From positions 7,904-71,903 of the forward strand of contig CAYGTO010000005.1 of assembly GCA_964352815.1 (NCBI GenBank): a DNA stretch of 64,000 bases, read 5' to 3'. Shown here in pieces: positions 11,301-60,996 of the stretch. How positions within the stretch are numbered: position 1 is the stretch's first letter; every line of letters begins with the position of its first letter. The notes below the pieces were generated by a model. The model had not been told where the DNA came from and searched no databases. It saw only the letters and a list, made by a program, of their open reading frames with translations. Origin of the DNA: an uncultured Azospirillaceae bacterium. GTDB lineage: Bacteria; Pseudomonadota; Alphaproteobacteria; Rickettsiales; UBA3002. Position numbers and translations under genes: made by a program.

Positions 11301-12079
11301 CGGGTTTCAAGGCGCGCGGCAGGGCGCTCAGCGTCTGGTATCGTGGGTGTCCGCGCTGGGCCTGAGCCGTCATATTCCTGGTCTTCTCCCCCTCTTGCTT
11401 GCGCAATGAGCTGTAAATCAGTCAGGAACTTTTCTTCCATCATATCTGCCACCGATGACCATTCGGTATGAAAAGCAATGCCCAGCGGCTCTCTTGTACG
11501 GACATAATTATGTAAGAAGTCATAATTTCGCGTGTCTTCATCAATTCCGATAGAGTTAACGGTAATGCCTGCTGATTCTGCTCTGCCAATAGCACCTAGT
11601 GGATTTCCTATATTATTTGCTCCATCTGTAGAAACATCTATGACCATTTTTTTAGGGTTTGGACATAGCTGTTGTCTTTCAGCGCTTCCCATAAGATTAA
11701 TGCCATCATCTATGCCTACCGATATATCTGAAGCCCTTGCTGAGTATCTCCTTAATTCTCTCAAAGAAGCAAGCTCCGATGCAAATGACAATGCATCTTC
11801 CTTTGAGTGTATCATCTTCCAGTTCACTAAAGGGTGAGTTCTTGTATCAAAAGAACGAGCAATAAACACCATGGGAAGGTTTTTTTCGATTTCATCAAGT
11901 ACACGCTCACTATTAAGTGCATCAGTGTGTGCATCCACTTGAAGTGTCCACGGTCTAACATCTTTCATTCCCGGAACGCGTGCAGTTGTCATGGAGCCGC
12001 TTTGATCTAGTGTGAAAACCACAGCCATCTTACATCCCGATAATGCCGAAGCGAGCTCTGGTTCGATTGATTCTGACAT
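11297..12079 (-). CDS. vWA-fold protein, DUF1194-like
   Basis: MIDAS-like DQSGSM, plus [13 protein letters not shown] and GITVNSIGI, which resemble DUF1194 signatures. The start was moved to MSESIEPE (ATG 12079) because it is preceded by GGAGGT. The ORF track begins at 12232. Confidence 0.65.
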
Positions 12080-12268: not shown

Positions 12269-13543
<1,275 letters not shown>

Positions 13544-13569
13544 CACTGTTTTTCCGCTATAAGTGAAGG

Positions 13570-15516: not shown

Positions 15517-16515
15517 ATGGCAACACAAACAATACGGGTCGCGCTGAGAGACGCCATGGCGGAGGAGCTTCGCCGCGATGAAGAAGTGTTCGTGATGGGC
15601 GAGGAAGTCGCCGAATATCAGGGCGCGTATAAGGTAACGGAAGGCTTGCTTGAGGAATTTGGCGACAAGCGCATTATTGATACACCGATCACCGAGCATG
15701 GCTTTGCGGGGATTGGTGTCGGCGCAGCGATGGCGGGGCTGAAGCCCGTTGTCGAATTCATGACGTGGAATTTTGCGATGCAAGCGATTGACCAGATCAT
15801 TAACTCTGCCGGCAAGACGCTTTACATGTCCGGCGGGCAGATCAAATGTCCGATCGTGTTTCGTGGGCCGAACGGCGCGGCCGCGCGCGTAGGTGCACAG
15901 CATTCCCAGGAATATTCCAGCTGGTACGCGCATATTCCGGGCCTTACCGTCATCGCGCCTTACAGCGCCGGCGATTGCAAAGGCCTGCTCAAATCCGCGA
16001 TTCGCAGTCCCAATCCGGTGATCTTCCTTGAGAATGAAGTGACCTATGGCTGGGAATTTGACGATGTGATGGAAGGCGAAGATGATCTGATTCCGATCGG
16101 CAAAGCGGCTGTGAAGCGCGAAGGCACGGACGTGACCATCACCGCCTTTTCGATCAATGTGAAATATGCGCTCGATGCGGCAGAGAAACTTGCCAAAGAG
16201 GGCATTAGCGCGGAGGTGATTGACCTGCGCACGATTCGTCCGCTCGATACGCAAACCATCATTGATTCGGTGCGCAAAACCCATCGTTTGATTTCCGTTG
16301 AAGAGGGCTGGCCCTTTGCTGGAATTGGCTCCGAGCTCGCAGCCATTTGTATGGAAGATTTGTTTGACGAGCTGGATGCACCGATGATTCGTGTGACGGG
16401 CAAAGACGTGCCGATGCCGTATGCGGCGAACCTTGAAAAACTCGCACTGCCCGGTGTAGATGACATTGTCAATGCGGCGCAGGAAGTCTGTTTTCCAATG
16501 GGGGCGGTGGCGTGA
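15517..16515 (+). CDS. pdhB: pyruvate dehydrogenase E1 component, beta subunit (no lipoyl domain)
   Basis: 332 aa with [25 protein letters not shown] and a transketolase-like pyrimidine-binding region. Confidence 0.95.
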
Positions 16516-16530
16516 GAAAAATGAAGCAAC

Positions 16531-16621
16531 GTCATTTCGAGCGAGCGCATCAGCGCGACGAGAAATCTGTCGGCGTCATGTTGAGATTTCTCCGTCTGCT
16601 AAAGCAGCCGTTCGAAATGAC
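16531..16621. repeat. GTCAT...ATGAC nested-hairpin element (91 nt)
   Basis: gtcatttcgag...gagaaatc-tgtcggcgtcatgtt-gatttctc...cgaaatgac has a perfect 8-bp inner stem. It overlaps the 5' end of the following ORF. Confidence 0.8.
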
Positions 16622-17330
16622 GTATATTATTTTCGCGGGAATGACACTTTTAGTGTTCACTTCCATTGCCCATGCCGACGATGATCTCGTACGCAGTGTG
16701 AGCGTGGTGGGCGAAGCAAAAGAATCACTCACCCCAGACCGCGCAACCATTAGCAGCACGGTACAGGCAAAGAACCAAAACTTAGACGCCGCAAAGAAAG
16801 AGCATGATGCGAAGCTTCGCAGCCTTTTGGCTCTGGCGAAGAAATATGATGTTGATGACAAAGACCAGCGCACGGTATCAAGCCGGATTCATCCGGAATG
16901 GCGTTGGGAAAAAAACACGCAAGTCTTTAAGGGATACACCGTGTCGACCACGGTGAGTTTTACGCTGGAAGACATCAAAGATGTGGGCGCGTTTTTAGAA
17001 GATGTGGTCCGCACCAAGCCCCATCAGATGAACGGCCCGAATTATCACATGGATGACACGAAACCGATCCGCGATAAGGTGCGTGTGTCGGCGATGAAAG
17101 ATGCGTATGCGAAAGCGGAAGCGCTTGCGAAGCAGGCTGATTTGAAGGTGGGGAAGGCCATCAGTATTTCAGACCGCTACCAGTCACCGCGGCCAGCTAT
17201 TGTAAACCGCGGTATGATTCGCGCTGATTCGGTTTCGTTTTCGGCGATGGAATCCGCGCCTGTTACTCCCCCTGCCGGAGAGCAAGCGATTCACGCGCAT
17301 GTCTATGTCACTTATGAGTTAGAAGAATAG
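16578..17330 (+). CDS. SIMPL-domain (DUF541) periplasmic protein
   Basis: A signal peptide ending ...LLVFTSIAHA, then a SIMPL-like body (DRATISSTVQAKNQNLDAAKKEH...). The start is ambiguous: 16578 (MLRFLRLLK, inside the repeat), 16617 (the ATGAC terminus of the repeat) or 16641. The ORF track begins at 16512. Confidence 0.7.
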   Translation: MLRFLRLLKQPFEMTYIIFAGMTLLVFTSIAHADDDLVRSVSVVGEAKESLTPDRATISSTVQAKNQNLDAAKKEHDAKLRSLLALAKKYDVDDKDQRTVSSRIHPEWRWEKNTQVFKGYTVSTTVSFTLEDIKDVGAFLEDVVRTKPHQMNGPNYHMDDTKPIRDKVRVSAMKDAYAKAEALAKQADLKVGKAISISDRYQSPRPAIVNRGMIRADSVSFSAMESAPVTPPAGEQAIHAHVYVTYELEE

Positions 17331-17342
17331 TAAGGGAACGCT

Positions 17343-18674
17343 ATGACCACAGAAATTTTAATGCCGGCGCTGTCGCCAACCATGACCGAGGGTACGCTTG
17401 CCAAATGGCTCAAGAAAGAAGGCGATACGGTCGAGTCGGGGGATATTCTCGCAGAGATCGAGACCGATAAGGCGACGATGGAAGTCGAAGCGGTCGATGA
17501 AGGCGTACTTGGCAAAATTTTTGTGGGTGACGGCACGGATAATGTGAAGGTCAATCAAGTGATCGCGGTGCTGCTGGATGAGGGTGAAGATAAGAGTGTA
17601 CTCAAAGATTATACGCCGCCGAAGCTGGAGGAGGAATCAGCAGAGGAAGAGGACGCCTCTGGTGACGATTCGGGCGGTGAGAAAAAAGAAACGAAAAAGC
17701 CGAGCGGTTCAGGCGGCGCGGCGATGATTCAGCAGCAAGCAACGACCGCGCCCGATGGCCCGGTCATGCCGGCAAAAGGGAAAGCTGCACAAACCGGTGA
17801 TCGCGTGAAGGCCTCGCCGCTGGCCAAGCGCATTGCTGAACAGAATATGCTCGATTTGAGTCGTGTGATGGGCAGCGGCCCGAACGGACGTATCATTAAA
17901 TCTGATATTGAAGAGGCGCTGCTGTCGGGCAATGCCGGGGCGAGCAAGGTGACGCGCCACCCGGTTGATTTCTATAAATTGCCGAACAATAATATGCGCA
18001 AAACCATCGCCAAGCGCCTGCTTGAGGCGAAGCAGACCATGCCGCATTTCTATCTGACGGTGGAGTGCGAGCTGGATGCGATGCTCGAAGTGCGTAAGCA
18101 AATTAATGGTCTGGCCGCCTCGCAAGCGGACGCGGATGGTAAGCCGCCTTACAAAATTTCGGTCAATGATATGGTCATCAAAGCCTCAGCTTGCGCGCTG
18201 CGTGACAAGCCAGCGGCGAATGCTAGCTGGTATGATGATGCGGTGGTGCAGTATAATAATGTCGATATTTCGGTGGCGGTGGCGACTGAGGGCGGCCTGA
18301 TCACGCCGATCATTCGCAATGCCGATCAAAAATCACTGCCGCAAATTTCTGCCGAGATGAAAGACCTCGCGGGCCGCGCGCGTAAAAATGCGCTGAAGCC
18401 TGAGGAATATCAGGGTGGCGGTTTCTCGATTTCAAACCTCGGCATGTTCGGCGTGCAAAGTTTCAGCGCCATTGTGAACCCGCCGCAAAGCTGCATCCTT
18501 GCGGTTGGCGCGGGAGAGGAAAAACTCGCGCTGGTCGATGGCCAGGTCACGGCGAAACAGGTGGTGAAAGTTACCCTGTCCGTTGATCACCGCTCCGTCG
18601 ATGGCGCCCTCGGCGCGGAATGGCTGCAAGCCTTTAAGAAATATATCGAACAGCCGGTGCTAATGTTTGTGTGA
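17343..18674 (+). CDS. pdhC: pyruvate dehydrogenase E2 (dihydrolipoamide acetyltransferase)
   Basis: Lipoyl domain with [10 protein letters not shown], an E3-binding domain and the catalytic DHRSVDG. Confidence 0.95.
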
Positions 18675-19195
18675 TGGAAGAGTGGGAACATACTTACTAT
18701 TATGAAATTTTGTTACTTTTAGTAACGTTAGTAGCTGGAGCTGTTGGTGCTCTTACGAACAAAGTGTTTGAGTGGAAAAACAGAGAAGAACTTAGAAAAA
18801 AGTTACACGAATATATTATCAGAGAAATAAAATTTAATATATCTAGAGTAGAGCACAATATTAATGAGCTTTACCAAATAAGAAACAAGTATGCCTTGTC
18901 AGAACGTATGATTGAAGCAACTACAGCAATAGGTAGAAGTGAAAGTAGCGTTATATTGAATTATTTGATTTCTCAAGGCATGGTCTATGAATTCTTAACA
19001 GACAAACAAATGGTGCTAATGCATAATTTTATCTTAAATTTTGCATCTACTACGGATTTATTTTTTAAAAGATTCACAGAACTGAAAGAAACAAATCCAA
19101 ATAAACAAGATGCTACAGCTTTCTTGGATCACTTTATTGATGAATATAATCATTATAAAAAAGATTTAGAAGATTTATTAAGAGAGCTAGCATGA
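18674..19195 (+). CDS. hypothetical membrane-anchored protein (AT-rich orphan)
   Basis: 173-174 aa with an N-terminal TM segment (YYYEILLLLVTLVAGAVGALT) and a helical remainder. ATG 18674 overlaps the pdhC TGA (TGATG); GTG 18671 is an alternative. Hand counts of two 60-nt lines give 13/60 and 21/60 G+C, against 29/60 in pdhC. Confidence 0.5.
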   Translation: MEEWEHTYYYEILLLLVTLVAGAVGALTNKVFEWKNREELRKKLHEYIIREIKFNISRVEHNINELYQIRNKYALSERMIEATTAIGRSESSVILNYLISQGMVYEFLTDKQMVLMHNFILNFASTTDLFFKRFTELKETNPNKQDATAFLDHFIDEYNHYKKDLEDLLRELA

Positions 19196-19503
19196 CAGAA
19201 AAACCCGTCATCACCTTCGAAGATATCCGCGCTAAACGCGAGGATATTTTGCGTATAGCGGAGGAACGCGGGCTTACGAATATCCGTGTGTTTGGCTCCA
19301 TCGCGCGCGGTGATGCCACCGAAGATAGCGACATTGATTTCTTGGTCAGCTACATGCCAGAAAGCGGTAAGGGCTGGGAAGTGTATGGGTTTCCGATAGA
19401 AATGGAAAAAATGTTTGGTGTGTCCAAAGTCGACATGGTGTTTGATAGTAACCTATATCCCATTTTCAAAGAACGCGTATTAAGCGAGGCGGTCGAGCTA
19501 TGA
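19192..19503 (+). CDS. mntA: nucleotidyltransferase-domain antitoxin (MntA-type, type VII TA)
   Basis: 103 aa. GSIARGDATEDSDIDFLV matches the GSxxRGx(n)SDxDxLV minimal nucleotidyltransferase motif. ATGA overlaps on both sides. Confidence 0.8.
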   Translation: MTEKPVITFEDIRAKREDILRIAEERGLTNIRVFGSIARGDATEDSDIDFLVSYMPESGKGWEVYGFPIEMEKMFGVSKVDMVFDSNLYPIFKERVLSEAVEL

Positions 19504-19868
19504 AGGAGAATGGCGATCAGGCTCACATTCATTATATTCTCTCCACCTCAGAGAAATTGTTGGGACTCGTGAAGGAAGAGAATGCCCGCAAGGCCTATCA
19601 AGACGATTGGATTCGCCAAGGCGCCACATTGCGCGGGCTTCATACCCTGTCTGAATCCGCTAGCAAGCTTTCGGGCGAAGCTAAGACCGCGATGCCAAAT
19701 ATCGAATGGGAAGAAATTCACGCTTTTAGAAATGCGTTGGTGCATGGATATTTGGGAAACATCAATCATGATGCCGTCTGGCTTGTGTTAGAGAACAAAC
19801 TACCAGACTTGAGAAACACATTATTAGCTTACTATGAGGAACATTATGGCGAATACAAACAAACATGA
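19500..19868 (+). CDS. hepT: HEPN/DUF86 toxin (HepT-type)
   Basis: 122 aa with the RNALVHGY (Rx4H) HEPN motif. Paired with the upstream MNT gene. Confidence 0.8.
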   Translation: MKENGDQAHIHYILSTSEKLLGLVKEENARKAYQDDWIRQGATLRGLHTLSESASKLSGEAKTAMPNIEWEEIHAFRNALVHGYLGNINHDAVWLVLENKLPDLRNTLLAYYEEHYGEYKQT

Positions 19869-21273
19869 TATCGTAATTTTAGGCGGTGGCCCGGGCGGGT
19901 ATGTCGCGGCGATTCGCGCGGCGCAGCTGGGCATGAATGCGGCGGTGGTCGAGCGCGAACATATGGGCGGGATTTGCCTGAATTGGGGCTGTATTCCGAC
20001 CAAGGCGCTGCTGCGCTCATCGGAGGTGATGCATCTGATGCAGGAGTCGGAAAGTTTCGGCCTGAGCAATGATAATATTTCGTATGATTTGAAAAAAGTG
20101 GTGAAGCGTTCGCGCGATGTGTCGGGGCAGCTCACCGGCGGAATCAGTGCGCTGATGAAGAAGAACAGAGTGACCGTCTATGAAGGCCATGGCGCGCTCG
20201 CGGGCGCGGGTAAAGTGACCGTGACCGAATTTGACAAAGAAGCGCGCGAAAAGGGCGAGAAGAAAGTCACCGAGATTGAAGCGGAACATATTATTCTCGC
20301 GACCGGTGCACGGGCGCGTCAGCTTCCGGGCCTTGAGTCCGATGGCACGCTGATCTGGACGTACCGCGAGGCGATGGTGCCAACCAAAATGCCGAAGAAA
20401 TTACTCGTCGTTGGTTCGGGCGCGATCGGTTCGGAATTTGCGAGTTTTTACCTGAATATGGGCGTCGATGTGACGCTGGTGGAAGTGCTTGATCGTGTGC
20501 TGCCCGTCGAAGATGAAGACATCTCGAAATTTATGAAGAAGCAGTTCGAGGCGCAGGGCATGAAGGTCAAAACCGCGACGACCGTGACCAAGCTCGAGAA
20601 GGGCAAAAGCAATGTCAAAGCGACGATGAAGGATAAAAAGGATAAGGAAACCACCGAGACGTTCGATAATGTGATTATGGCGGTGGGGATTGTCGGCAAT
20701 ATTGAAGGGATCGGCATTGAGGGTACGCGCGTGAAAACCGAGCGCGGCCATATTGTGGTGGATGAATATTACCGCACCGGTGAGAAGGGCGTCTATGCGA
20801 TCGGTGACATTACCGGCGCGCCGTGGCTCGCGCATAAAGCCTCGCATGAGGGGGTGATTTGTATCGAAGCGATTGCCGGCAAAAAGCCGCACGCGATGGT
20901 GAAGGAAAATATTCCGGGCTGCACCTATTGCCGCCCGCAAGTGGCGAGCGTTGGGCTGACTGAGGCGAAGGCGAAAGAGGCAGGGCATGAGGTCAAAGTC
21001 GGCAATTTCCCATTCATCGGTAATGGCAAAGCGATTGCACTGGGCGAGCCGGAAGGCATCGTGAAAACCGTGTTTGATGCGCAGACGGGTGAGCTACTCG
21101 GCGCGCATATGGCCGGCGCGGAAGTGACCGAAATGATTCAGGGCTACGTCATCGCGAAGCAGCTGGAGGCGACTGAAAAAGACCTGATGCACACCATCTT
21201 CCCGCATCCGACGCTGTCGGAAATGATGCATGAGTCGGTGCTGGATGCGTATGGGCAGGTGATTCATATGTGA
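19846..21273 (+). CDS. lpdA: dihydrolipoyl dehydrogenase (E3)
   Basis: GGGPGGY FAD motif and redox-active CLNWGCIPTK. Start MANTNKHD (ATG 19846, GAGGAA SD) overlaps the hepT 3' end by 23 nt. Confidence 0.95.
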   Translation: MANTNKHDIVILGGGPGGYVAAIRAAQLGMNAAVVEREHMGGICLNWGCIPTKALLRSSEVMHLMQESESFGLSNDNISYDLKKVVKRSRDVSGQLTGGISALMKKNRVTVYEGHGALAGAGKVTVTEFDKEAREKGEKKVTEIEAEHIILATGARARQLPGLESDGTLIWTYREAMVPTKMPKKLLVVGSGAIGSEFASFYLNMGVDVTLVEVLDRVLPVEDEDISKFMKKQFEAQGMKVKTATTVTKLEKGKSNVKATMKDKKDKETTETFDNVIMAVGIVGNIEGIGIEGTRVKTERGHIVVDEYYRTGEKGVYAIGDITGAPWLAHKASHEGVICIEAIAGKKPHAMVKENIPGCTYCRPQVASVGLTEAKAKEAGHEVKVGNFPFIGNGKAIALGEPEGIVKTVFDAQTGELLGAHMAGAEVTEMIQGYVIAKQLEATEKDLMHTIFPHPTLSEMMHESVLDAYGQVIHM

Positions 21274-21384
21274 TTTTTGCGTTTCTTCCCGCTCCGGCCT
21301 CCTGGCCTGCGCGATGAAGCTAACGCCTTCGGCGACTAAAGTATCGGCCTACTGGCCTTACTTTACGATACCAGCTGTGCCGGA

Positions 21385-21520
21385 ATTTATCCCCGTACCC
21401 GCCTACGCGGGCATAAACTCCGGCGGGGATCCAGAGCAGCAGGCTATATGAAGCATAACGCCCCAGACCCCGCAACAAGTGCGGGGTGACATGTGTGGGG
21501 CGAAGCGAGCACGGGATCTC
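21385..21520. repeat. degenerate cluster of hairpin repeats related to the GTCAT family
   Basis: atccccg[..cccgc-ctac-gcggg..]cggggatcc and ccccgca-acaag-tgcgggg hairpins, similar to the 58557-58659 copy. The boundaries are uncertain. Confidence 0.35.
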
Positions 21521-21602
21521 CAGCTCTAAATCTTCACGAAACTGCCACACACCCTTCCTACTTAGTGGCTATATTTCGGCCAATTAAACGCGGAGATACA
21601 CT

Positions 21603-22367
21603 ATGACAGATTTTAACAAACCCAAATTTATTATGATGGTAGGCGTTCCCATGTCCGGCAAGGACAGCTGGATCGGCCAGAACTTTGATTTTCAGGGGAC
21701 TAGCTCAGCGGATCTAGGCCTATATAAACGTAAGTCGGACGGTGCGACCTTTAACGTGATTTCCACCGATAATGAAGTATATACTGTTGGGTGTAAACAC
21801 TGTGTTACTTCCGATTTACAAGGCAGAGATGAGTATGTTCGTTACCAAGACGTTATGACGTACGATGATTGGCATCCCAAAGACAAGCCGGTGAGTGATT
21901 TATATCGAGAGGCAATTGATGAGGTGGACAAGAAGTTAGATGAGGCAATTGCTGCGGGCAAAAATATTTTGTTCAATCGCACGAATACAACTCAGCAAGA
22001 GCGCGCAGCTGTTATTGAAAAGCTAGGCGATAAATATGATGTCGAAGCGGTAGTTATGGTGCCATCTTCAGAAGAGATTGCATCACGCTATGAACGCTCG
22101 AACCCTAAAGAAATCCCGGGTTTTGTGATGGCTTCCAAAATGAAAAAGTTTGAAATGCCAACCAAGGAAGAAGGCTTTAGTCATATCCATATTAACCCGC
22201 CAACACGTCCAACAATTTTCCCGGGAATGGCAGGTGAGCGTTATGCACCGAGTGAGTTTATTAAAAAGAATCAAGCGGTGATAGATTCTTCAGTATTTAG
22301 GGGTGTCGAGGCAGTTCAAAAATATGATGAACTCGCTGCAGCACAGGTACGAGGCCAATCCCGCTAA
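21603..22367 (+). CDS. P-loop kinase-like protein (AAA_33 / polynucleotide-kinase-like)
   Basis: FIMMVGVPMSGKDSW is Walker A-like (GxxxxGKD, with D in place of S/T). ILFNRTNTTQQER resembles the kinase lid region of AAA_33 proteins. Confidence 0.55.
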   Translation: MTDFNKPKFIMMVGVPMSGKDSWIGQNFDFQGTSSADLGLYKRKSDGATFNVISTDNEVYTVGCKHCVTSDLQGRDEYVRYQDVMTYDDWHPKDKPVSDLYREAIDEVDKKLDEAIAAGKNILFNRTNTTQQERAAVIEKLGDKYDVEAVVMVPSSEEIASRYERSNPKEIPGFVMASKMKKFEMPTKEEGFSHIHINPPTRPTIFPGMAGERYAPSEFIKKNQAVIDSSVFRGVEAVQKYDELAAAQVRGQSR

Positions 22368-53338: not shown

Positions 53339-53416
53339 TACGCTAGCTATCTGTTAAATGCGCGGTAATGCTTGTTTTTTCCGTTCTAGCATTCTACTCC
53401 TATGGCAATCAACTAA

Positions 53417-55336
<1,920 letters not shown>

Positions 55337-55385
55337 TGAAAGTCGCTAGTTATTAGTCTCTAGTTGTTAGCGACTAACAGCGAGC

Positions 55386-55699
55386 GTCATTCTGAGTGAA
55401 GCGCAGCGCAACGCAACGAAGAATCTCCTTGCGTTTGACGCGATAGATCCTTCGCATTCGCTCAGGATGACGACGTCTCCCGTTCTGCGAGAAGCGAAGC
55501 GACGAAGCAGTCCATTAACATTGTGCATTACGCTTTGGATCGCGCTTGCCCGCTATAGCCTTGGCAAAGGCTGGTCGCCGGCACGATGTGCCTTCTCGCG
55601 AAACGGCATAATCTCGTCATCTCGAACACGGCGCAGCGTGAGCGAAGCAGTGGAGAGATCTTAGATTTCTCCATTCGCGGGGCTCCTGTTCGAAATGAC
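55386..55699 (+). repeat. mosaic of three repeat units (left flank of the RTX gene)
   Basis: unit1 55386-55471 (gtcattctgag...gctcaggatgac), unit2 55472-55615 (cgttctgcgagaagcgaagcgacgaagcagtcc...ccttctcgcgaaa) and unit3 55616-55699 (gtcatctcgaac...gttcgaaatgac). Confidence 0.8.
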
Positions 55700-55815
55700 G
55701 GCGCGAAGCCAGCAGGCGTAGCCCTTCAGTGCGCGGAAGCGCTTAGGCTTATCGTGAGCGCAGAAGCGCGAACGGGAGCGATCAAAAAAACTCTAACCCC
55801 CTGATTTTTCATTTT

Positions 55816-55833
55816 TTGTCATCAAATTGTCAC
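55816..55833 (+). promoter_or_regulatory. Pho-box-like direct repeat (putative PhoB site)
   Basis: TTGTCAT-CAAA-TTGTCAC. 19 of 22 positions are identical to the motif at 47119-47140. GATTCT lies 12 nt downstream. It is 158 nt upstream of ATG 55991. Confidence 0.35.
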
Positions 55834-55990
55834 ATTGTTTGAGGCGATTCTCAGATATACTGAAAGCTGGCTGCTTTTTTCATCATGACCGTTCGGATAC
55901 CCGCGTGGACCGAACCGATGGAGAAAGCTCCGATTCCTACCCGCAAGCGTGGTGCTTGTGTGGGGGATACAACTGTAGGAGACTACTGAG

Positions 55991-57052
55991 ATGAGTAACA
56001 CCATCATCGGTTCCGACGGAGGGGAAACCCTCAACGGAACCAACGGCGACGACGTCATCTTCGGCAACGGGGGCAATGATGTCCTCCGCGGCAACGAAGG
56101 TGATGACACCCTCTGGGGTGGGCTTGGCGTCGACACCCTCTTCGGAGGTGCCGGTGCCGACATTCTTGACGGTGGCTTCCAGACGGGAAGCACCGTTCAC
56201 GTCAACGAGTTCGACGTGGACGGCGACCTCCTGTGCGGGGTCGACCGGACGATCATCTATGTGATCAACGGTGTCGCCCACATGGCCGAGTTCGGTTTCG
56301 AAGACGCCAACGGCAATGGTGTTTGGCTTCTCGACGACGGTGACGGTGTCACCGACTTCGAGGCCCGCCTCGTGCGGGAAACGCCCGATCACGAGCTGTT
56401 CGGCGTTTTCGCCGTCGAGCAGCCGGTCGACCCCGACCCGGTGGAAACGCCGGGCACGGGCGGCGACCCGGACTTTATCGATATCGACATCATCGGCGAC
56501 GGTGATAACGACATCGATATCGACATCGACGGACCGGTGATCGACATCGACATCGACGGCCCCGTGGACGGGGACGTTGACATCGACATCGACATCGACA
56601 ATGGCGATGGGCACGATACGCCCTCTGGTGACGACGAGATCGATTCGCTGGAATCGGCCTGGGTCGAGCTCCTCTACGAGGCGGGTCTGAACCGTCCTGC
56701 GCAGGGCGCCGGCAAGGCGTTCTGGCTCGATGTCTTCGAAAGCTTCGAGGACGCCGAGGAAGGGTCCAACTTCCTCGCCTACCACTTCCTGTACTCTCTG
56801 GAGTTTCAGGAGAATGTGGGAGACGTGGAGACGATGGACTCGTTCCACTTCGTCGGTGCGCTCTACGAGAACGTCCTCGACCGCGAGGCCAAGGCCGGTG
56901 GCCTGGACTTCTGGGCCGGGGTCGATGAGCGTGGCGATTCGAGCGTAGAGACGCGGGTCGAGATCCTGGAGGCCTTCGCGGGAAGCCAGGAGAACATCGC
57001 TCAAGCCGACTTGGCTGGGGAGTATACCTCAGGCGACTTCATCTGGATCTGA
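55991..57052 (+). CDS. RTX (hemolysin-type calcium-binding) repeat protein with a DUF4214-like C-terminal region
   Basis: Five N-terminal nonapeptides (GTNGDDVIF GNGGNDVLR GNEGDDTLW GGLGVDTLF GGAGADILD), an acidic DIDIDID core and a C-terminal LLYEAGLNRPAQGAGKAFWLD...ALYENVLDREAKAGGLDFW segment like DUF4214. AGGAG SD. G+C-rich. Confidence 0.8.
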   Translation: MSNTIIGSDGGETLNGTNGDDVIFGNGGNDVLRGNEGDDTLWGGLGVDTLFGGAGADILDGGFQTGSTVHVNEFDVDGDLLCGVDRTIIYVINGVAHMAEFGFEDANGNGVWLLDDGDGVTDFEARLVRETPDHELFGVFAVEQPVDPDPVETPGTGGDPDFIDIDIIGDGDNDIDIDIDGPVIDIDIDGPVDGDVDIDIDIDNGDGHDTPSGDDEIDSLESAWVELLYEAGLNRPAQGAGKAFWLDVFESFEDAEEGSNFLAYHFLYSLEFQENVGDVETMDSFHFVGALYENVLDREAKAGGLDFWAGVDERGDSSVETRVEILEAFAGSQENIAQADLAGEYTSGDFIWI

Positions 57053-57134
57053 GAAGCGGAACACCGCGACAGGCTAGAGACGTCGAGCCACTGAAGCATC
57101 CCCTCCTTCGGGAGGGGGCGCTTCAAACACTCAA

Positions 57135-57176
57135 GGGGGTGAGGGCCGCAAGGTTCTCCCCCCTCTTTCTTTTGTG
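57135..57176 (+). terminator. putative intrinsic terminator after the RTX gene
   Basis: An imperfect GC stem (gggggtgag...tctccccc) followed by tctttcttttgtg. It is preceded by a stable cccctcc-ttcg-ggagggg hairpin at 57100-57117. Confidence 0.4.
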
Positions 57177-57185
57177 TGGCACTAT

Positions 57186-57469
57186 GGATCCTTCGCATGC
57201 GCTCAGGATGACGATATCTTTCGTTCTGCGAGCGGACACGCAGTGTCAAGCGACGCAGTCCAGCAGAATCTAGCAACACGCTCTGGATCGCGCTTGCCCG
57301 CCGTAGCCTTGGCGAAGGCTGGTCGTCGATGCGTGGCATCTCCTCGCGAAATGTCTAGCATCGTCATTTCGAACGACCGCGCAGCGGGAGGAGAGCCGAA
57401 GCGAAGCTAAATCTCATGATATTGCCCGAGATCCTCACATCGTTCGTTTCACTCGCTCCTCAGGATGAC
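57186..57469 (+). repeat. mosaic of repeat units (right flank of the RTX gene), same order and orientation as 55386-55699
   Basis: 3' half of unit1 57186-57212 (ggatccttcgcatgcgctcaggatgac), unit2 57213-57362 (cgttctgcgag...tggatcgcgcttgcccgccgtagccttggcgaaggctggtcg...ctcctcgcgaaa) and unit3 57363-57469 (gtcatttcgaacg...cctcaggatgac). Confidence 0.8.
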
Positions 57470-57568
57470 GAGATGTGAATGGATCGCTTCGTTGCTCATG
57501 ACATTCGCGCCTCGCGAAATGGCACTTTATGCATTGACTCTAGGCCGCAAACCGTCAAGATTCCTCAC

Positions 57569-58555
57569 ATGCAGATTACTCCCTTCACCCCGCACCCTTA
57601 TGAAACCATCTCCCATCACGTATTCCCCAAGCCCATTGGCGAAGAGGTCTATGCGCAGTGGAACACAAAGCTCGCGCGGGAAGAAGCGCTAGTGACGGAG
57701 CGCATTGCCTATGAGGTGGGCGGTGTGCCCGTCTCGGGGGTGCGTGTGATGCCGGCTCTTGAACCGTCATTGCGAGGGAGCGCCAGCGACCGCGGCAATC
57801 TCCCTCAAGATGACGCCACGCCTCACGAGATTGCCACGCATCCTTCGGATGCTCGCAATGACGATGCTTCCTACCCCCTCATTATCTTCAACCGCGGTGG
57901 CAGTGGCAGCTATGGTATGATCACCACGCTGCAGATCGTCTATCTGCTACATCCGATGGCGAAATTCTGGGGCGGCGCGATTGTGCTGGGCAGTAATTAT
58001 CGCGGGAATGACACCGAGGCGGCGCTGGATGAGCGGCTCGATGAATTTGGCGGCGCGGATGTGGCCGATGTGCTCGCGCTGATCGAGGAAGGCAAGAAAA
58101 TGCCGCAGTGGGATGGGAAGAATATTTTTATGGCTGGCTGGTCGCGCGGCGGCATGATGGCGGCACTGGCGATGAAGCAGGGCGCCGAGCTTACGGCAGC
58201 GGCGGCGATTGGCGGGGCGTTTGATTTAAAGGATATGCTCGAAAAGCGCCCAGGCATGCGCGACACCTATGAGCGGCGGATTGGGATTACGAGCCAAGAA
58301 AAGCTGGAGCAGGATATGCGCGAGCGTTCCGCCATTCACTGGCCCGAGGCGATCAGCGCGCCGTTCCAGCTTCAGCATGGTGATGCGGATGAACAGGTGA
58401 GCGTGGAAGGCGCAAAGCTGCTTGCGGAGAAGTTAGAGGCGATTGGTGCGCCGCATGAGCTGATTCTGCATGCGGGCGGTGATCATTTCTTGAACCGTAA
58501 GCGTGAAGAGGTGCTTGCGCATATTGAGCGGTGGTTTAGAAACTATAAAACGTGA
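57569..58555 (+). CDS. alpha/beta hydrolase (S9 prolyl-oligopeptidase / dienelactone-hydrolase-like) carrying an in-frame repeat insertion
   Basis: Nucleophile elbow GWSRGG, with HGDADEQV and GGDHF near the C-terminus. I preferred start MQITPFTPHP (ATG 57569) over 57479, which lies just after the repeat mosaic. Confidence 0.75.
   Translation: MQITPFTPHPYETISHHVFPKPIGEEVYAQWNTKLAREEALVTERIAYEVGGVPVSGVRVMPALEPSLRGSASDRGNLPQDDATPHEIATHPSDARNDDASYPLIIFNRGGSGSYGMITTLQIVYLLHPMAKFWGGAIVLGSNYRGNDTEAALDERLDEFGGADVADVLALIEEGKKMPQWDGKNIFMAGWSRGGMMAALAMKQGAELTAAAAIGGAFDLKDMLEKRPGMRDTYERRIGITSQEKLEQDMRERSAIHWPEAISAPFQLQHGDADEQVSVEGAKLLAEKLEAIGAPHELILHAGGDHFLNRKREEVLAHIERWFRNYKT
57766..57862 (+). repeat. 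GTCAT...ATGAC element inside the hydrolase CDS, read through in frame
   Basis: gtcattgcgag...ctcgcaatgac (perfect 11-nt terminal inverted repeat), translated as PSLRGSASDRGNLPQDDATPHEIATHPSDARNDD immediately before the conserved YPLIIFNRGGSG strand. Confidence 0.75.
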
Positions 58556-59560: not shown

Positions 59561-59562
59561 CT

Positions 59563-59716
59563 GTCATCCTCGGGGCTTTTGTTAGTAGACAAAAGAGCCC
59601 GGGGATCCAGAATCAAAAGGTCAGGAGACCTTTTGATATTCACTGATGTCTACTGACATCAATGAACTAGATTGCCTGGATGCGCTCGCTTGCTACTTGC
59701 TTACCGTGGCAATGAC
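59563..59716 (-). repeat. compound 154-nt element, left inverted copy flanking nadA
   Basis: gtcatcctcgggg[cttttgt-tagtag-acaaaag]..ggggatccagaa[tcaaaaggtc-agga-gaccttttga]..[ttcactgatgtc-tact-gacatcaatgaa]..gattgcctgg...ccgtggcaatgac. Confidence 0.85.
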
Positions 59717-59808
59717 ACTAATCTTACATTCCCGTCATCAAATATTAATTGCGGAAACTTTTTTTCGCGTCATAATGTCAAATATAGTTAATATTCTGGC
59801 AAAGGTTA

Positions 59809-60813
59809 ATGACTGAGATTACGCCACAGTCGAACGATCGTTCAGCTATCACGCCTGCAATTCCACGTGATTTGGAAGGTGAGATTGATCGCCTGCGCAC
59901 GGAAATGAACGCAGTCATTTTGGCTCATTACTATCAAGAGGACGAGATTCAGGACATTGCCGACTTTGTGGGTGATTCGCTCGATCTCTCGCGTAAGGCG
60001 GCGGCGACGGATGCGGATGTGATCGTGTTTTGCGGTGTTAAATTCATGGCGGAAACCGCAAAAATTTTGAGCCCAGAGAAAACGGTGCTACTTCCGGATT
60101 TGAAGGCAGGGTGTTCGCTTGAAGATTCCTGCCAACCAGAGAAATTCAAAGCGTTTCGTGAGGCACACCCGGACCATCTCTCGCTGACCTACATCAATTG
60201 CTCGGCCGAGGTGAAAGCGCTATCGGATATTATTGTGACTTCGACGAATGCGGAACATATCATCAACCAAATTCCCGAAGACCAGCCAATTTTGTGGGCA
60301 CCGGATAAATTTCTCGGCGGCTATTTGGCGAAGAAAACGGGCCGTGAGATGCTCTTGTGGGACGGGACATGTATTGTGCATGAGCGTTTTTCTGAACAGG
60401 AATTAGTGAAACTTAAAACCCGCCATGCAGGCGCGCATGTAATTGCGCATCCGGAGTGCCCCGAAGCATTGCTGAATCATGCGAACCATATTGGTTCGAC
60501 CTCCTCCTTGCTGAAATTCACAGAAGAACGCCCGGGTGAAGAATTCATCGTGCTGACCGAGCCAGGGATTCTGCATCAGATGGAGCTGCGCTCGAAAGGC
60601 AGCACTTTTTATGATGTGCCCGGCGCGATGGATTCGGGCTGTGTGTCGTGTAATCATTGCCCTTATATGAAAATGAATACGATGGAAAAGCTCTATCTCT
60701 GTATGGATCAGCGCGCGCCAGAGCTCACGCTTTCTCCCGAGCTTATCACAGCGGCACATAAGCCACTTGCGAAGATGTTAGAGATGTCGCAAGATATCCC
60801 GATAAAGAAATAA
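59809..60813 (+). CDS. nadA: quinolinate synthase
   Basis: 334 aa with ILAHYYQ, VHERF and conserved Cys ligands (C..CxxC..). Confidence 0.93.
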
Positions 60814-60824
60814 CACATTATTTT

Positions 60825-60979
60825 GTCATTGCCACGGTAAGCGAGCAGATAGCGAGCGCATCCAGGCAATCCATTCCATTGATGTCAGGAGACATCAATG
60901 GAAATAAAAATGTCTTCTGACATTTTTATTCTGGATCCCCGGGATCTTTTGTCTTGCTGACAAAAGCCCCGAGGATGAC
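60825..60979 (+). repeat. compound 155-nt element, right inverted copy flanking nadA
   Basis: gtcattgccacgg...ccaggcaatcc..[ttccattgatgtc-agga-gacatcaatggaa]..[ataaaaatgtc-ttct-gacatttttat]..ggatccccggg..[cttttgt-cttgctg-acaaaag]ccccgaggatgac. Its architecture is the reverse complement of 59563-59716. Confidence 0.85.
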
Positions 60980-60996
60980 AGATTACGGAGGCATAT

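Follow-up and report, generated by a model that had tools for sequence, protein, structure and literature searches.

The window analysed here is the whole stretch of 64,000 nucleotides from contig CAYGTO010000005.1 of an uncultured alphaproteobacterium. It carries on its forward strand a gene (55991-57052) for a 353-amino-acid (aa) protein that combines N-terminal RTX repeats with a C-terminal DUF4214 domain. The gene lies between thiC and a gene for an S9/alpha-beta hydrolase, as a preliminary description of this DNA had placed it, and clusters of hairpin-forming repeats flank it on both sides. On balance we favour the explanation that this is a self-contained gene acquired horizontally into a recombination-prone slot 3' of thiC, that its RTX-DUF4214 product is probably secreted, and that the flanking hairpin clusters are old and native to the genome.

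Composition and codon usage

We consider the gene very likely to be foreign. The richness in G+C and in G+C at third codon positions (GC3) that had been noticed by eye holds over the entire coding sequence. Its G+C content is 0.617 against 0.498 for the window, and its GC3 at synonymous positions (GC3s) of 0.797 is the highest in the window, compared with a mean of 0.508 for the 47 other genes (sd 0.094, maximum 0.695; z=+3.08). Under host codon usage, the amino-acid content of the protein would lead to a GC3s of 0.50. C occupies 0.55 of the third positions in the gene, as against 0.23-0.27 across all classes of host genes. The codons chosen are GAC (0.78), ATC (0.96), TTC (0.90), CAC (1.0) and GCC (0.70), whereas the GC3-rich core genes of the host use GAT (0.71), ATT (0.60), CAT (0.77), TAT (0.76) and GCG (0.66). 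The host prefers T-ending codons in two-fold and G-ending codons in four-fold families, GC3-rich core genes included. The C-ending bias of the RTX-DUF4214 gene is uniform over its four segments (RTX, middle, acidic and DUF4214). Codon preference is thus reversed with respect to the host and does not represent an extreme of the host's expression-linked bias, and therefore a foreign origin, already suspected from base composition, is the best reading.

The RTX-DUF4214 protein and its homologues

Pfam recognizes HemolysinCabind in two stretches (aa 6-41 and beyond, E 7.9e-14) and DUF4214 (aa 264-338, E 1.5e-18), which bears out the RTX N-terminus, acidic DIDID core and DUF4214-like C-terminus that had been read from the translation. 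RTX nonapeptides occupy aa 1-60, tandem DIDID/GPV repeats form the acidic core at aa 151-215, a helical DUF4214 region resembling a phycobilisome-linker (PBS-linker) domain spans aa 220-345, and the chain ends in the tail SGDFIWI. The protein is extremely acidic, with 84 Asp and Glu residues against 10 Lys and Arg residues, and its N-terminus shows no features of a Sec signal peptide. In a sequence search of the PDB, aa 2-58 match the RTX blocks of CyaA (E 2e-25) and aa 13-127 match the C-terminal beta-roll of serralysin (E 4e-8). We modelled the structure with AlphaFold2 (AF2) using an alignment of 38 sequences, and discarded a single-sequence model in which the predicted local distance difference test score (pLDDT) was 35. 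The model shows the start of an N-terminal beta-roll (pLDDT about 82 at aa 1-35), with short strands spaced nine residues apart at aa 4-33, and a C-terminal domain of eight helices (pLDDT 90-98 at aa 220-340). Foldseek relates this helical domain to PBS-linker domains, with matches that are weak yet consistent (best E 5.9e-3, prob 1.0). DUF4214 is a helical repeat of about 70 aa with the motif LYxxxLxR...G...W, and in the 38-sequence alignment residues Y229, R235, G241, W245, R298 and W308 are invariant.

Homologues were searched with a word index over 5.8 billion proteins and with HMMER over all of 1.8 billion representatives. In both sets, identical copies of the protein are the sole matches along its entire length, and all remaining matches cover either the RTX part alone or the DUF4214 part alone. 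For the DUF4214 part, 3044 homologues match aa 222-345 (best 6.5e-23), and the closest named one comes from a metagenome-assembled genome (MAG) of the Paracoccaceae. The closest of these homologues share a recurrent aromatic C-terminal tail, G-x-W-x-F-(A/V/G), with which SGDFIWI aligns. At least three GxGxD motifs precede the DUF4214 motif in six of 37 short DUF4214 homologues. An N-terminal position of the RTX repeats, which the preliminary description had thought unusual, is thus found again in these six proteins as well as in Psh (PP_1794, below), and the predicted combination of N-terminal RTX with C-terminal DUF4214 is a recurrent architecture. CyaA, serralysin/AprA and lipases resemble the protein in the GGxGxD nonapeptide beta-roll, the strong acidity and the lack of an N-terminal signal peptide; however, their RTX block lies just upstream of an uncleaved C-terminal secretion signal, whereas here it is N-terminal and the C-terminus is helical. 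The genes for the cognate export machinery of such substrates are as a rule close by.

The nearest described counterpart by domain layout is Psh (PP_1794) of Pseudomonas putida KT2440, an RTX-DUF4214 'phage shielding helix-rich protein' reported in a preprint of September 2026 (bioRxiv 10.64898/2026.09.02.748959). Psh is exported by an adjacent type I secretion system (T1SS), associates with the O-antigen of lipopolysaccharide and gives broad phage resistance by masking receptors (bioRxiv 10.64898/2026.09.02.748959). The same work assigned its DUF4214 domain to the phycobilisome-linker superfamily, in agreement with our Foldseek result, and found few RTX-DUF fusions in alphaproteobacteria (bioRxiv 10.64898/2026.09.02.748959). 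Both proteins are single polypeptides with N-terminal RTX and C-terminal DUF4214. They differ in that Psh adjoins a T1SS (aprD/HlyD/OMF) and an O-antigen cluster, neither of which is present in the 64 kb studied here, and in that our protein, which belongs to an alphaproteobacterium, additionally contains an orphan middle and an acidic linker of DIDID type. Judged by these predicted domains, the gene is a further member of the RTX-DUF4214 (Psh-like) proteins. The models of PADLOC-DB v2, a database older than the Psh report, gave no match to the protein at E<=0.01.

The slot 3' of thiC in related genomes

The left neighbour of the gene, thiC (53426-55336, forward strand; Pfam ThiC_Rad_SAM, E 9.6e-185), is the conserved left anchor of a slot that varies among genomes. 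For comparison we used six distant MAGs (L006, L007, L008, L010, L011 and L030) that share the synteny upstream or have a close thiC; the window ThiC is 75% identical to that of the nearest MAGs. The gene directly 3' of thiC is different in each of the six and is often compositionally deviant. It encodes an unknown protein in L006 (GC 0.37), L010 and L030 (GC 0.40), a DUF559 protein in L007, and a DUF2971 protein matching PADLOC PDC-S31 in L011 (GC 0.36), while in L008 a HEPN protein (GC 0.32) is followed by a GIY-YIG open reading frame (ORF) and an EEP-family protein. With the window included, seven genomes have seven occupants 3' of thiC that show no mutual homology.

The thiC-hydrolase junction, singled out earlier for comparison with relatives, is kept in L008 alone. 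This genome, the Rickettsiales MAG STL-PRO43, has the order nhaA-mutY-GDSL-thiC-[2.2 kb]-hydrolase-CxxC, so it is the only relative that also shares the right-hand anchor, and its 2.2 kb of cargo are unrelated and contain no RTX gene. No orthologue of the RTX-DUF4214 gene was found at the slot in L008 or in any of 85 loci. None of the six relatives has direct repeats of at least 22 nt on both sides of its cargo genes. In L008, L006, L030 and L010 the slot region contains no direct repeats of that length; L011 and L007 have only short hairpin repeats of 22-30 nt, which in L007 flank the DUF559 ORF, and what else the relatives show is limited to small GIY-YIG and DUF559 ORFs with short inverted hairpins on either side. 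As far as gene order can tell, the 3' side of thiC is an accessory-gene slot that appears prone to recombination. It resembles the minimal mobile element (MME), where two conserved genes enclose whole-gene cassettes that differ and are exchanged by homologous recombination without an integrase (PMC3898611), in that it holds different whole-gene cargo across the seven genomes; however, MMEs were defined among naturally transformable strains of Neisseria, and the comparison here is between distant MAGs.

Directly beyond the hydrolase-CxxC pair of L008, the closest relative with synteny, a gene on the reverse strand (15901-22251) encodes a protein of 2116 aa with many repeated modules and GGxGxD motifs near the C-terminus. 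By its motifs this looks like an RTX adhesin, and if it is one, candidate T1SS substrates are encoded near this site in relatives within the lineage.

Hairpin mosaics on both sides of the gene

The two flanks contain the same hairpin units, colinear, in the same order and in direct orientation. In the left mosaic, unit 1 (55385-55472) is an 88-nt hairpin with the termini CGTCATTCTGAG...CTCAGGATGACG (motif matches at 55385 on the forward and 55472 on the reverse strand), unit 2 (55480-55606) is a 127-nt inverted repeat, CCGTTCTGCGAG...CTCGCGAAACGG, with the core TGGATCGCGCTTGCCCGC, and unit 3 (55615-55700) is an 86-nt hairpin, CGTCATCTCGAAC...GTTCGAAATGACG, defined by its fold and by motif matches at 55615 (forward) and 55700 (reverse). 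In the right mosaic, likewise read on the forward strand, unit 1 is represented by its 3' half only (57187-57213, identical to 55446-55472 at 26 of 27 positions), unit 2 (57221-57353) is 80% identical to its left counterpart over 127 aligned positions with 3 indels, and unit 3 occupies 57362-57470 (motif matches at 57362, forward, and 57470, reverse). This anatomy agrees with the preliminary description in the identity, order and direct orientation of the units. It departs from it in the right unit 3, whose similarity to the left unit 3 is confined to the 5' half (90 aligned positions, 77% identity) and which has a 5' arm of unit-3 type and a 3' end formed by the unit-1-type arm CTCAGGATGACG.

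Seen as direct repeats, 55428-55491 and 57169-57232 are 81% identical and 55503-55603 and 57251-57351 are 76% identical, with BLAST cores of 48 nt at 91.7% (E 1.6e-12) and 46 nt at 89.1% (E 6e-9). No further copy of the repeat blocks of units 1 and 2 was found in the 64 kb. Both mosaics fold more stably than shuffled sequences (z=-3.8 on the left, z=-2.9 on the right). The hairpin units end in complementary termini of the type CGTCATYNYGAR...YTCRNRATGACG; the window has 13 occurrences of the CGTCATYNYGAR motif where 0.37 would be expected, and ten of them fall between 55385 and 57863. The blocks conserved between the mosaics are the stem cores of the family and not random stretches. Since the two mosaics differ by about 20% and by indels, as the earlier impression of clearly diverged copies had it, they are not a fresh duplication, and their sequences suggest that they are paralogous but old. 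Their position as the sole two same-order copies in 64 kb, adjacent to each other, suggests that they are locally related. With the hydrolase start at 57569, both are wholly intergenic.

A possible degenerate 5' arm of unit-1 type at 55748-55782 (forward strand), complementary to the 3' half of the right unit 1, is a weak lead: the local alignment score is 24 against a shuffle mean of 17.2 (sd 2.5), and 7 of 500 shuffles score as high, uncorrected for multiple tests. Two similar candidates were rejected as not significant, namely a similarity between the 5' part of unit 1 and 55701-55990 (136 of 500 shuffles as high) and a third, degenerate mosaic module at 57430-57580 (score 48.5 against 36±5.5 for shuffles, maximum 51). 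The sole real part of the latter is a third unit-1 3' arm at 57439-57471. Rfam contains no family for the mosaics or spacers, a literature search on the repeat sequence returned unrelated papers only, and exact-pattern scans of JGI metagenomes gave 0 matches each for the unit-2 core and the unit1-unit2 junction. A protein search that used the ORF running through the right mosaic, in order to detect further copies of the repeat, was likewise negative. We rejected the dating of the duplication by repeat divergence against gene amelioration, as a change of about 10% per copy barely shifts GC3.

Hairpin units elsewhere in the host and its relatives

The mosaics are clusters of non-autonomous palindromic units like the repetitive extragenic palindromes (REPs), bacterial interspersed mosaic elements (BIMEs) and Rickettsia palindromic elements (RPEs), and they are native to this genome and its relatives. 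A related unit is present in Inquilinus limosus, and short GTCATCCCGGCGAAGGCCGGGATCC hairpins stand beside thiC in L008 and L011. Within the window, a 93-nt hairpin of unit-3 type (CGTCATTTCGAG...TTCGAAATGACG) is located at 16530-16622, directly after pdhB and before a SIMPL gene; as called mechanically, the SIMPL/DUF541 ORF (16512-17330) includes it in its 5' end. The hydrolase gene itself contains a 99-nt palindromic unit (57765-57863, CGTCATTGCGAG...CTCGCAATGACG) that is in-frame over 33 codons without a stop. It adds about 30 aa (SLRGSASDRGNLPQDDATPHEIATHPSDARNDD) that have no counterpart in the L008 orthologue, and the insertion coincides exactly with the palindrome. In L030, thiC carries an in-frame palindromic element of about 87 nt at 11712-11798 (SSLRGSEGDAAIQLKEDGSPRGLEAARDD). 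The nadA gene (59809-60813), of normal codon usage, is bracketed by mosaics at 59561-59717 and 60824-60981; these represent a different hairpin mosaic of about 157 nt, with the termini CTGTCATCCTCGGGGC...GGCAATGACA, and its two copies are about 90% identical and in inverted orientation.

Like BIMEs, which consist of REP units in enterobacteria (PMC3184786), the mosaics are clusters of different palindromic units with fixed order and orientation, located in spacers and often after gene ends. They differ from BIMEs in that the units are 86-127 nt long with CGTCAT termini, whereas REPs are 20-40 nt long with a GTAG-type head, in that the window contains no gene for a REP-associated tyrosine transposase (RAYT, Y1 transposase), and in that the sequences are unrelated. 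RPEs, as a review summarizes Ogata et al. 2000, are palindromes of about 100 nt that occur in spacers and in-frame within genes (PMC3184786), a behaviour matched by the in-frame units in the hydrolase and in thiC of L030. The likeness to RPEs is one of size and behaviour, and the host is a metabolically complete alphaproteobacterium, not a Rickettsia. The repeats thus combine a BIME feature, the fixed mosaic, with an RPE feature, the in-frame insertion into ORFs.

Nuclease sequences in and near thiC are also accompanied by inverted repeats. In both L008 and L030 the C-terminal linker of ThiC accommodates insertions: besides the element in L030, the ThiC of L008 (9950-12268, 772 aa) includes a DUF559-like endonuclease domain, in-frame and with 40-nt inverted repeats on either side. 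Beside thiC in L008 and in L007 (4599-5068), inverted hairpin repeats closely enclose small ORFs of the GIY-YIG (94 aa) and DUF559 (132 aa) types. In L008 these repeats are a perfect pair of 28 nt (13117-13144 and 13535-13562, GTCATCCCGGCGAAGGCCGGGATCCACG), and the same hairpin recurs three times after thiC in a different MAG, L011 (11843, 12250 and 12342). These small ORFs may be selfish nuclease genes tied to the hairpin repeats.

The cassette and its neighbourhood

Upstream of the coding sequence lies an AT-rich region (55783-55990, forward strand), with a GC content of 0.37 at 55800-55899 and a Shine-Dalgarno sequence, AGGAG, at 55977-55981. A consensus scan of the forward strand upstream of the gene found no sigma-70 promoter. 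Past the stop codon, two strong hairpins (57092-57125 and 57134-57164), of which the downstream one runs into a T-rich tail, fill a region of the forward strand (57092-57177) that folds at -65.9 kcal/mol (z=-4.55). They are likely the intrinsic terminator or terminators of the cassette, and a simple terminator scan missed them because the stem is bulged. The 355-aa ORF that had been noted on the opposite strand is present at 55937-57004 in the mechanical ORF list. It is not a gene: it is a shadow of the high GC3, and the Pfam domains are on the forward strand.

To the right, the hydrolase gene (57569-58555, forward strand; Pfam Peptidase_S9) forms the other anchor of the slot, and its true start at 57569 follows from an alignment with the L008 orthologue that starts at M1 (39% identity, E 1e-68). 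Further genes nearby encode a CxxC protein, arsC and nadA. The window as a whole is a core chromosomal stretch, with trpEGDC, tpiA, pyrG, kdsA, eno, pdhABC-lpd, tyrS, rne, gltA, nhaA, mutY, thiC, nadA and nadC. It contains no tRNA gene and no O-antigen cluster, and a Pfam scan of 48 window genes found no integrase, no transposase and no T1SS component (ABC transporter, membrane fusion protein or outer-membrane protein), in keeping with the earlier remark that no integrase, transposase or tRNA is adjacent to the gene.

Three further observations concern thiC and the window at large. In the spacer of just 87 nt upstream of thiC (53339-53425) no thiamine pyrophosphate riboswitch was detected with Rfam, whether the gathering threshold or E<=1 was applied. 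The 90% cluster containing the window ThiC has as its representative a 55-aa protein (P0123) from an unrelated ENA contig, a eukaryotic transposon with retrotransposon and transposase genes, which looks like a database clustering artefact. A second compositional outlier is an ORF of 174 aa at 18671-19195 (forward strand; GC 0.30, GC3s 0.22, z=-3.1) between pdhC and lpd. It overlaps the pdhC stop, has no Pfam or PADLOC match and no flanking mosaics, and looks like a second foreign insertion, inside the pdh cluster.

Origin of the gene and its flanks

Under the explanation we favour, a cassette consisting of a ribosome-binding site, the ORF and its own terminator hairpins would have been acquired horizontally, most likely by homologous or illegitimate recombination in a hotspot without a dedicated integrase, and the crossovers could have taken place in the repeats or in the conserved flanking genes. 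Palindromic repeats occupy the spacers of this hotspot, as they do other intergenic spacers of the genome and even ORFs. The product would consist of an N-terminal Ca2+-binding beta-roll, the orphan middle, the DIDID linker and a C-terminal helical, PBS-linker-like DUF4214 domain. By analogy with Psh, it would be exported by a T1SS encoded elsewhere, fold and be stabilised with Ca2+ outside the cell, and stay on or near the surface. If it behaves as Psh does, it may bind a surface polysaccharide and mask phage receptors there.

Some observations weigh against this explanation. For the middle third of the protein (aa 38-216), the searches gave no homologue and AF2 no confident structure. T1SS and O-antigen genes are absent from the 64-kb window, where the search for type I secretion genes suggested earlier came out negative for all 48 genes, so that we only infer export. 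The window species is not among the GTDB representatives and the nearest genomes are distant (ThiC 75%, hydrolase 39%). Lastly, the sole two copies of units 1 and 2 flank one gene, which is easier to understand if they are linked to its insertion than if they landed independently.

The last point leads to a rival explanation, in which the mosaics captured the gene; we think this possible but clearly less probable. A circular intermediate composed of the cassette and one mosaic could have entered a resident mosaic by a single crossover, leaving direct copies on either side, or the cassette could have been inserted in the loop of a unit-1 hairpin within a tandem array of modules, splitting unit 1 around it. 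The occurrence of the same three units on both sides, in the same order and orientation, and as the sole copies in 64 kb, argues for capture, as do the start of the right mosaic in the middle of unit 1 and the complementarity of 55748-55782 to the 3' half of the right unit 1. Precedents exist as well: in N. meningitidis, pilC1 lies between carA and NMA0611 with arrays of neisserial intergenic mosaic elements (NIMEs) at its flanks (PMC3898611), and REP units serve as target sites of insertion sequences (PMC3184786). The NIME case is similar in that intergenic arrays of short repeats flank a surface-protein gene between conserved genes, although NIMEs are built of 20-bp dRS3 and RS units whose sequence is unrelated to the units described here. 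However, the copies are about 20-25% diverged with indels, and what they conserve are stem cores; the signal of a split hairpin is weak and comes without correction for multiple testing; and the cassette has neither terminal repeats nor a target duplication. Moreover, the native nadA is bracketed by mosaics that are more similar (about 90%) and inverted, the low-GC foreign ORF at 18671-19195 has no mosaics, the cargo of the six relatives lacks direct repeats of at least 22 nt on both sides, exact patterns of the unit1-unit2 junction and unit-2 core gave no match in the JGI metagenomes, and the hairpin superfamily is native and widespread in the host and its relatives. A more far-reaching version would have palindromic modules act as targets that capture foreign promoter-plus-gene cassettes without integrase or transposase, with a cassette of about 55783-57182 lying within the split unit-1 hairpin of a second tandem module, and with the repeats maintaining the thiC hotspot, including the hairpins and the small GIY-YIG and DUF559 ORFs that it has in relatives; this we regard as distinctly unlikely. 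Of the earlier proposal that the gene was acquired by way of the mosaics, the foreign gene and the junction that varies in relatives are upheld, and the capture role of the mosaics stays hypothetical.

Two other alternatives leave horizontal transfer out altogether. A native gene could owe its composition to repeats of Asp, Gly, Ile and Val or to very high expression, and the wide GC3 range of window genes (0.22-0.70), the GC3 enrichment of host central-metabolism genes and the weak correlation of relative synonymous codon usage between the gene and the GC3-rich host genes (r=0.50) are compatible with this. We nevertheless consider it very improbable, with an observed GC3s of 0.80 against the 0.50 expected from the amino acids, with host GC3-rich genes that gain G-ending codons and keep T-ending two-fold codons where the RTX-DUF4214 gene is C-ending even outside its repeats, and with no orthologue at the site in L008 or the 85 loci. 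That a fragment of a GC-rich organism was joined to the contig at shared repeats, through misassembly or binning, is the least probable explanation of all. Five per-run Logan contigs encode the identical protein, and three of these, each from a different run, match the window at 100% identity over a segment that begins at 55643 in the left unit 3, covers the gene and the right mosaic and extends into the hydrolase. In addition, L008 keeps the downstream hydrolase and CxxC genes in synteny with thiC. In favour of an artefact, the left unit 3 confuses assemblers: four of the five contigs begin at base 55643, inside that unit, which points to a repeat-induced break. The suspicion of misassembly raised earlier is accordingly answered for the right junction, present in three independent contigs, whereas the join of thiC to the left mosaic is seen in the window assembly alone.

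Three classes of mobile element were considered for the locus and rejected. An integron with attC sites does not fit, as there is no integrase and the hairpin termini are CGTCAT...ATGACG and not the RYYYAAC...GTTRRRY cores that bound promoterless integron cassettes. A tRNA-linked genomic island would have a tRNA and an integrase, both lacking here, and its direct repeats would be short and near-identical, whereas the flanking repeats are about 280 nt long and about 20% diverged. A composite transposon fails the defining tests. The short non-coding units do have the terminal inverted repeats of a miniature inverted-repeat transposable element, but no target-site duplication is visible at the unit borders and there is no transposase in the window.

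Implications

The finding fits known categories and overturns no current understanding, and an unconventional capture mechanism remains an unproven and rather doubtful proposal. If mosaics were to mark or create insertion sites genome-wide, the importance would rise above modest. Our analysis shows that hairpin repeats resembling RPEs also insert in-frame into ORFs of organisms other than Rickettsia, and that a group of Rickettsiales-like and other alphaproteobacterial MAGs has a slot for accessory genes 3' of thiC. In addition, it extends the Psh-like RTX-DUF4214 proteins to an uncultured alphaproteobacterium, in which the gene appears to be stand-alone and recently transferred. If the function of Psh carries over, this would imply that phage shields can move horizontally without a secretion system of their own.

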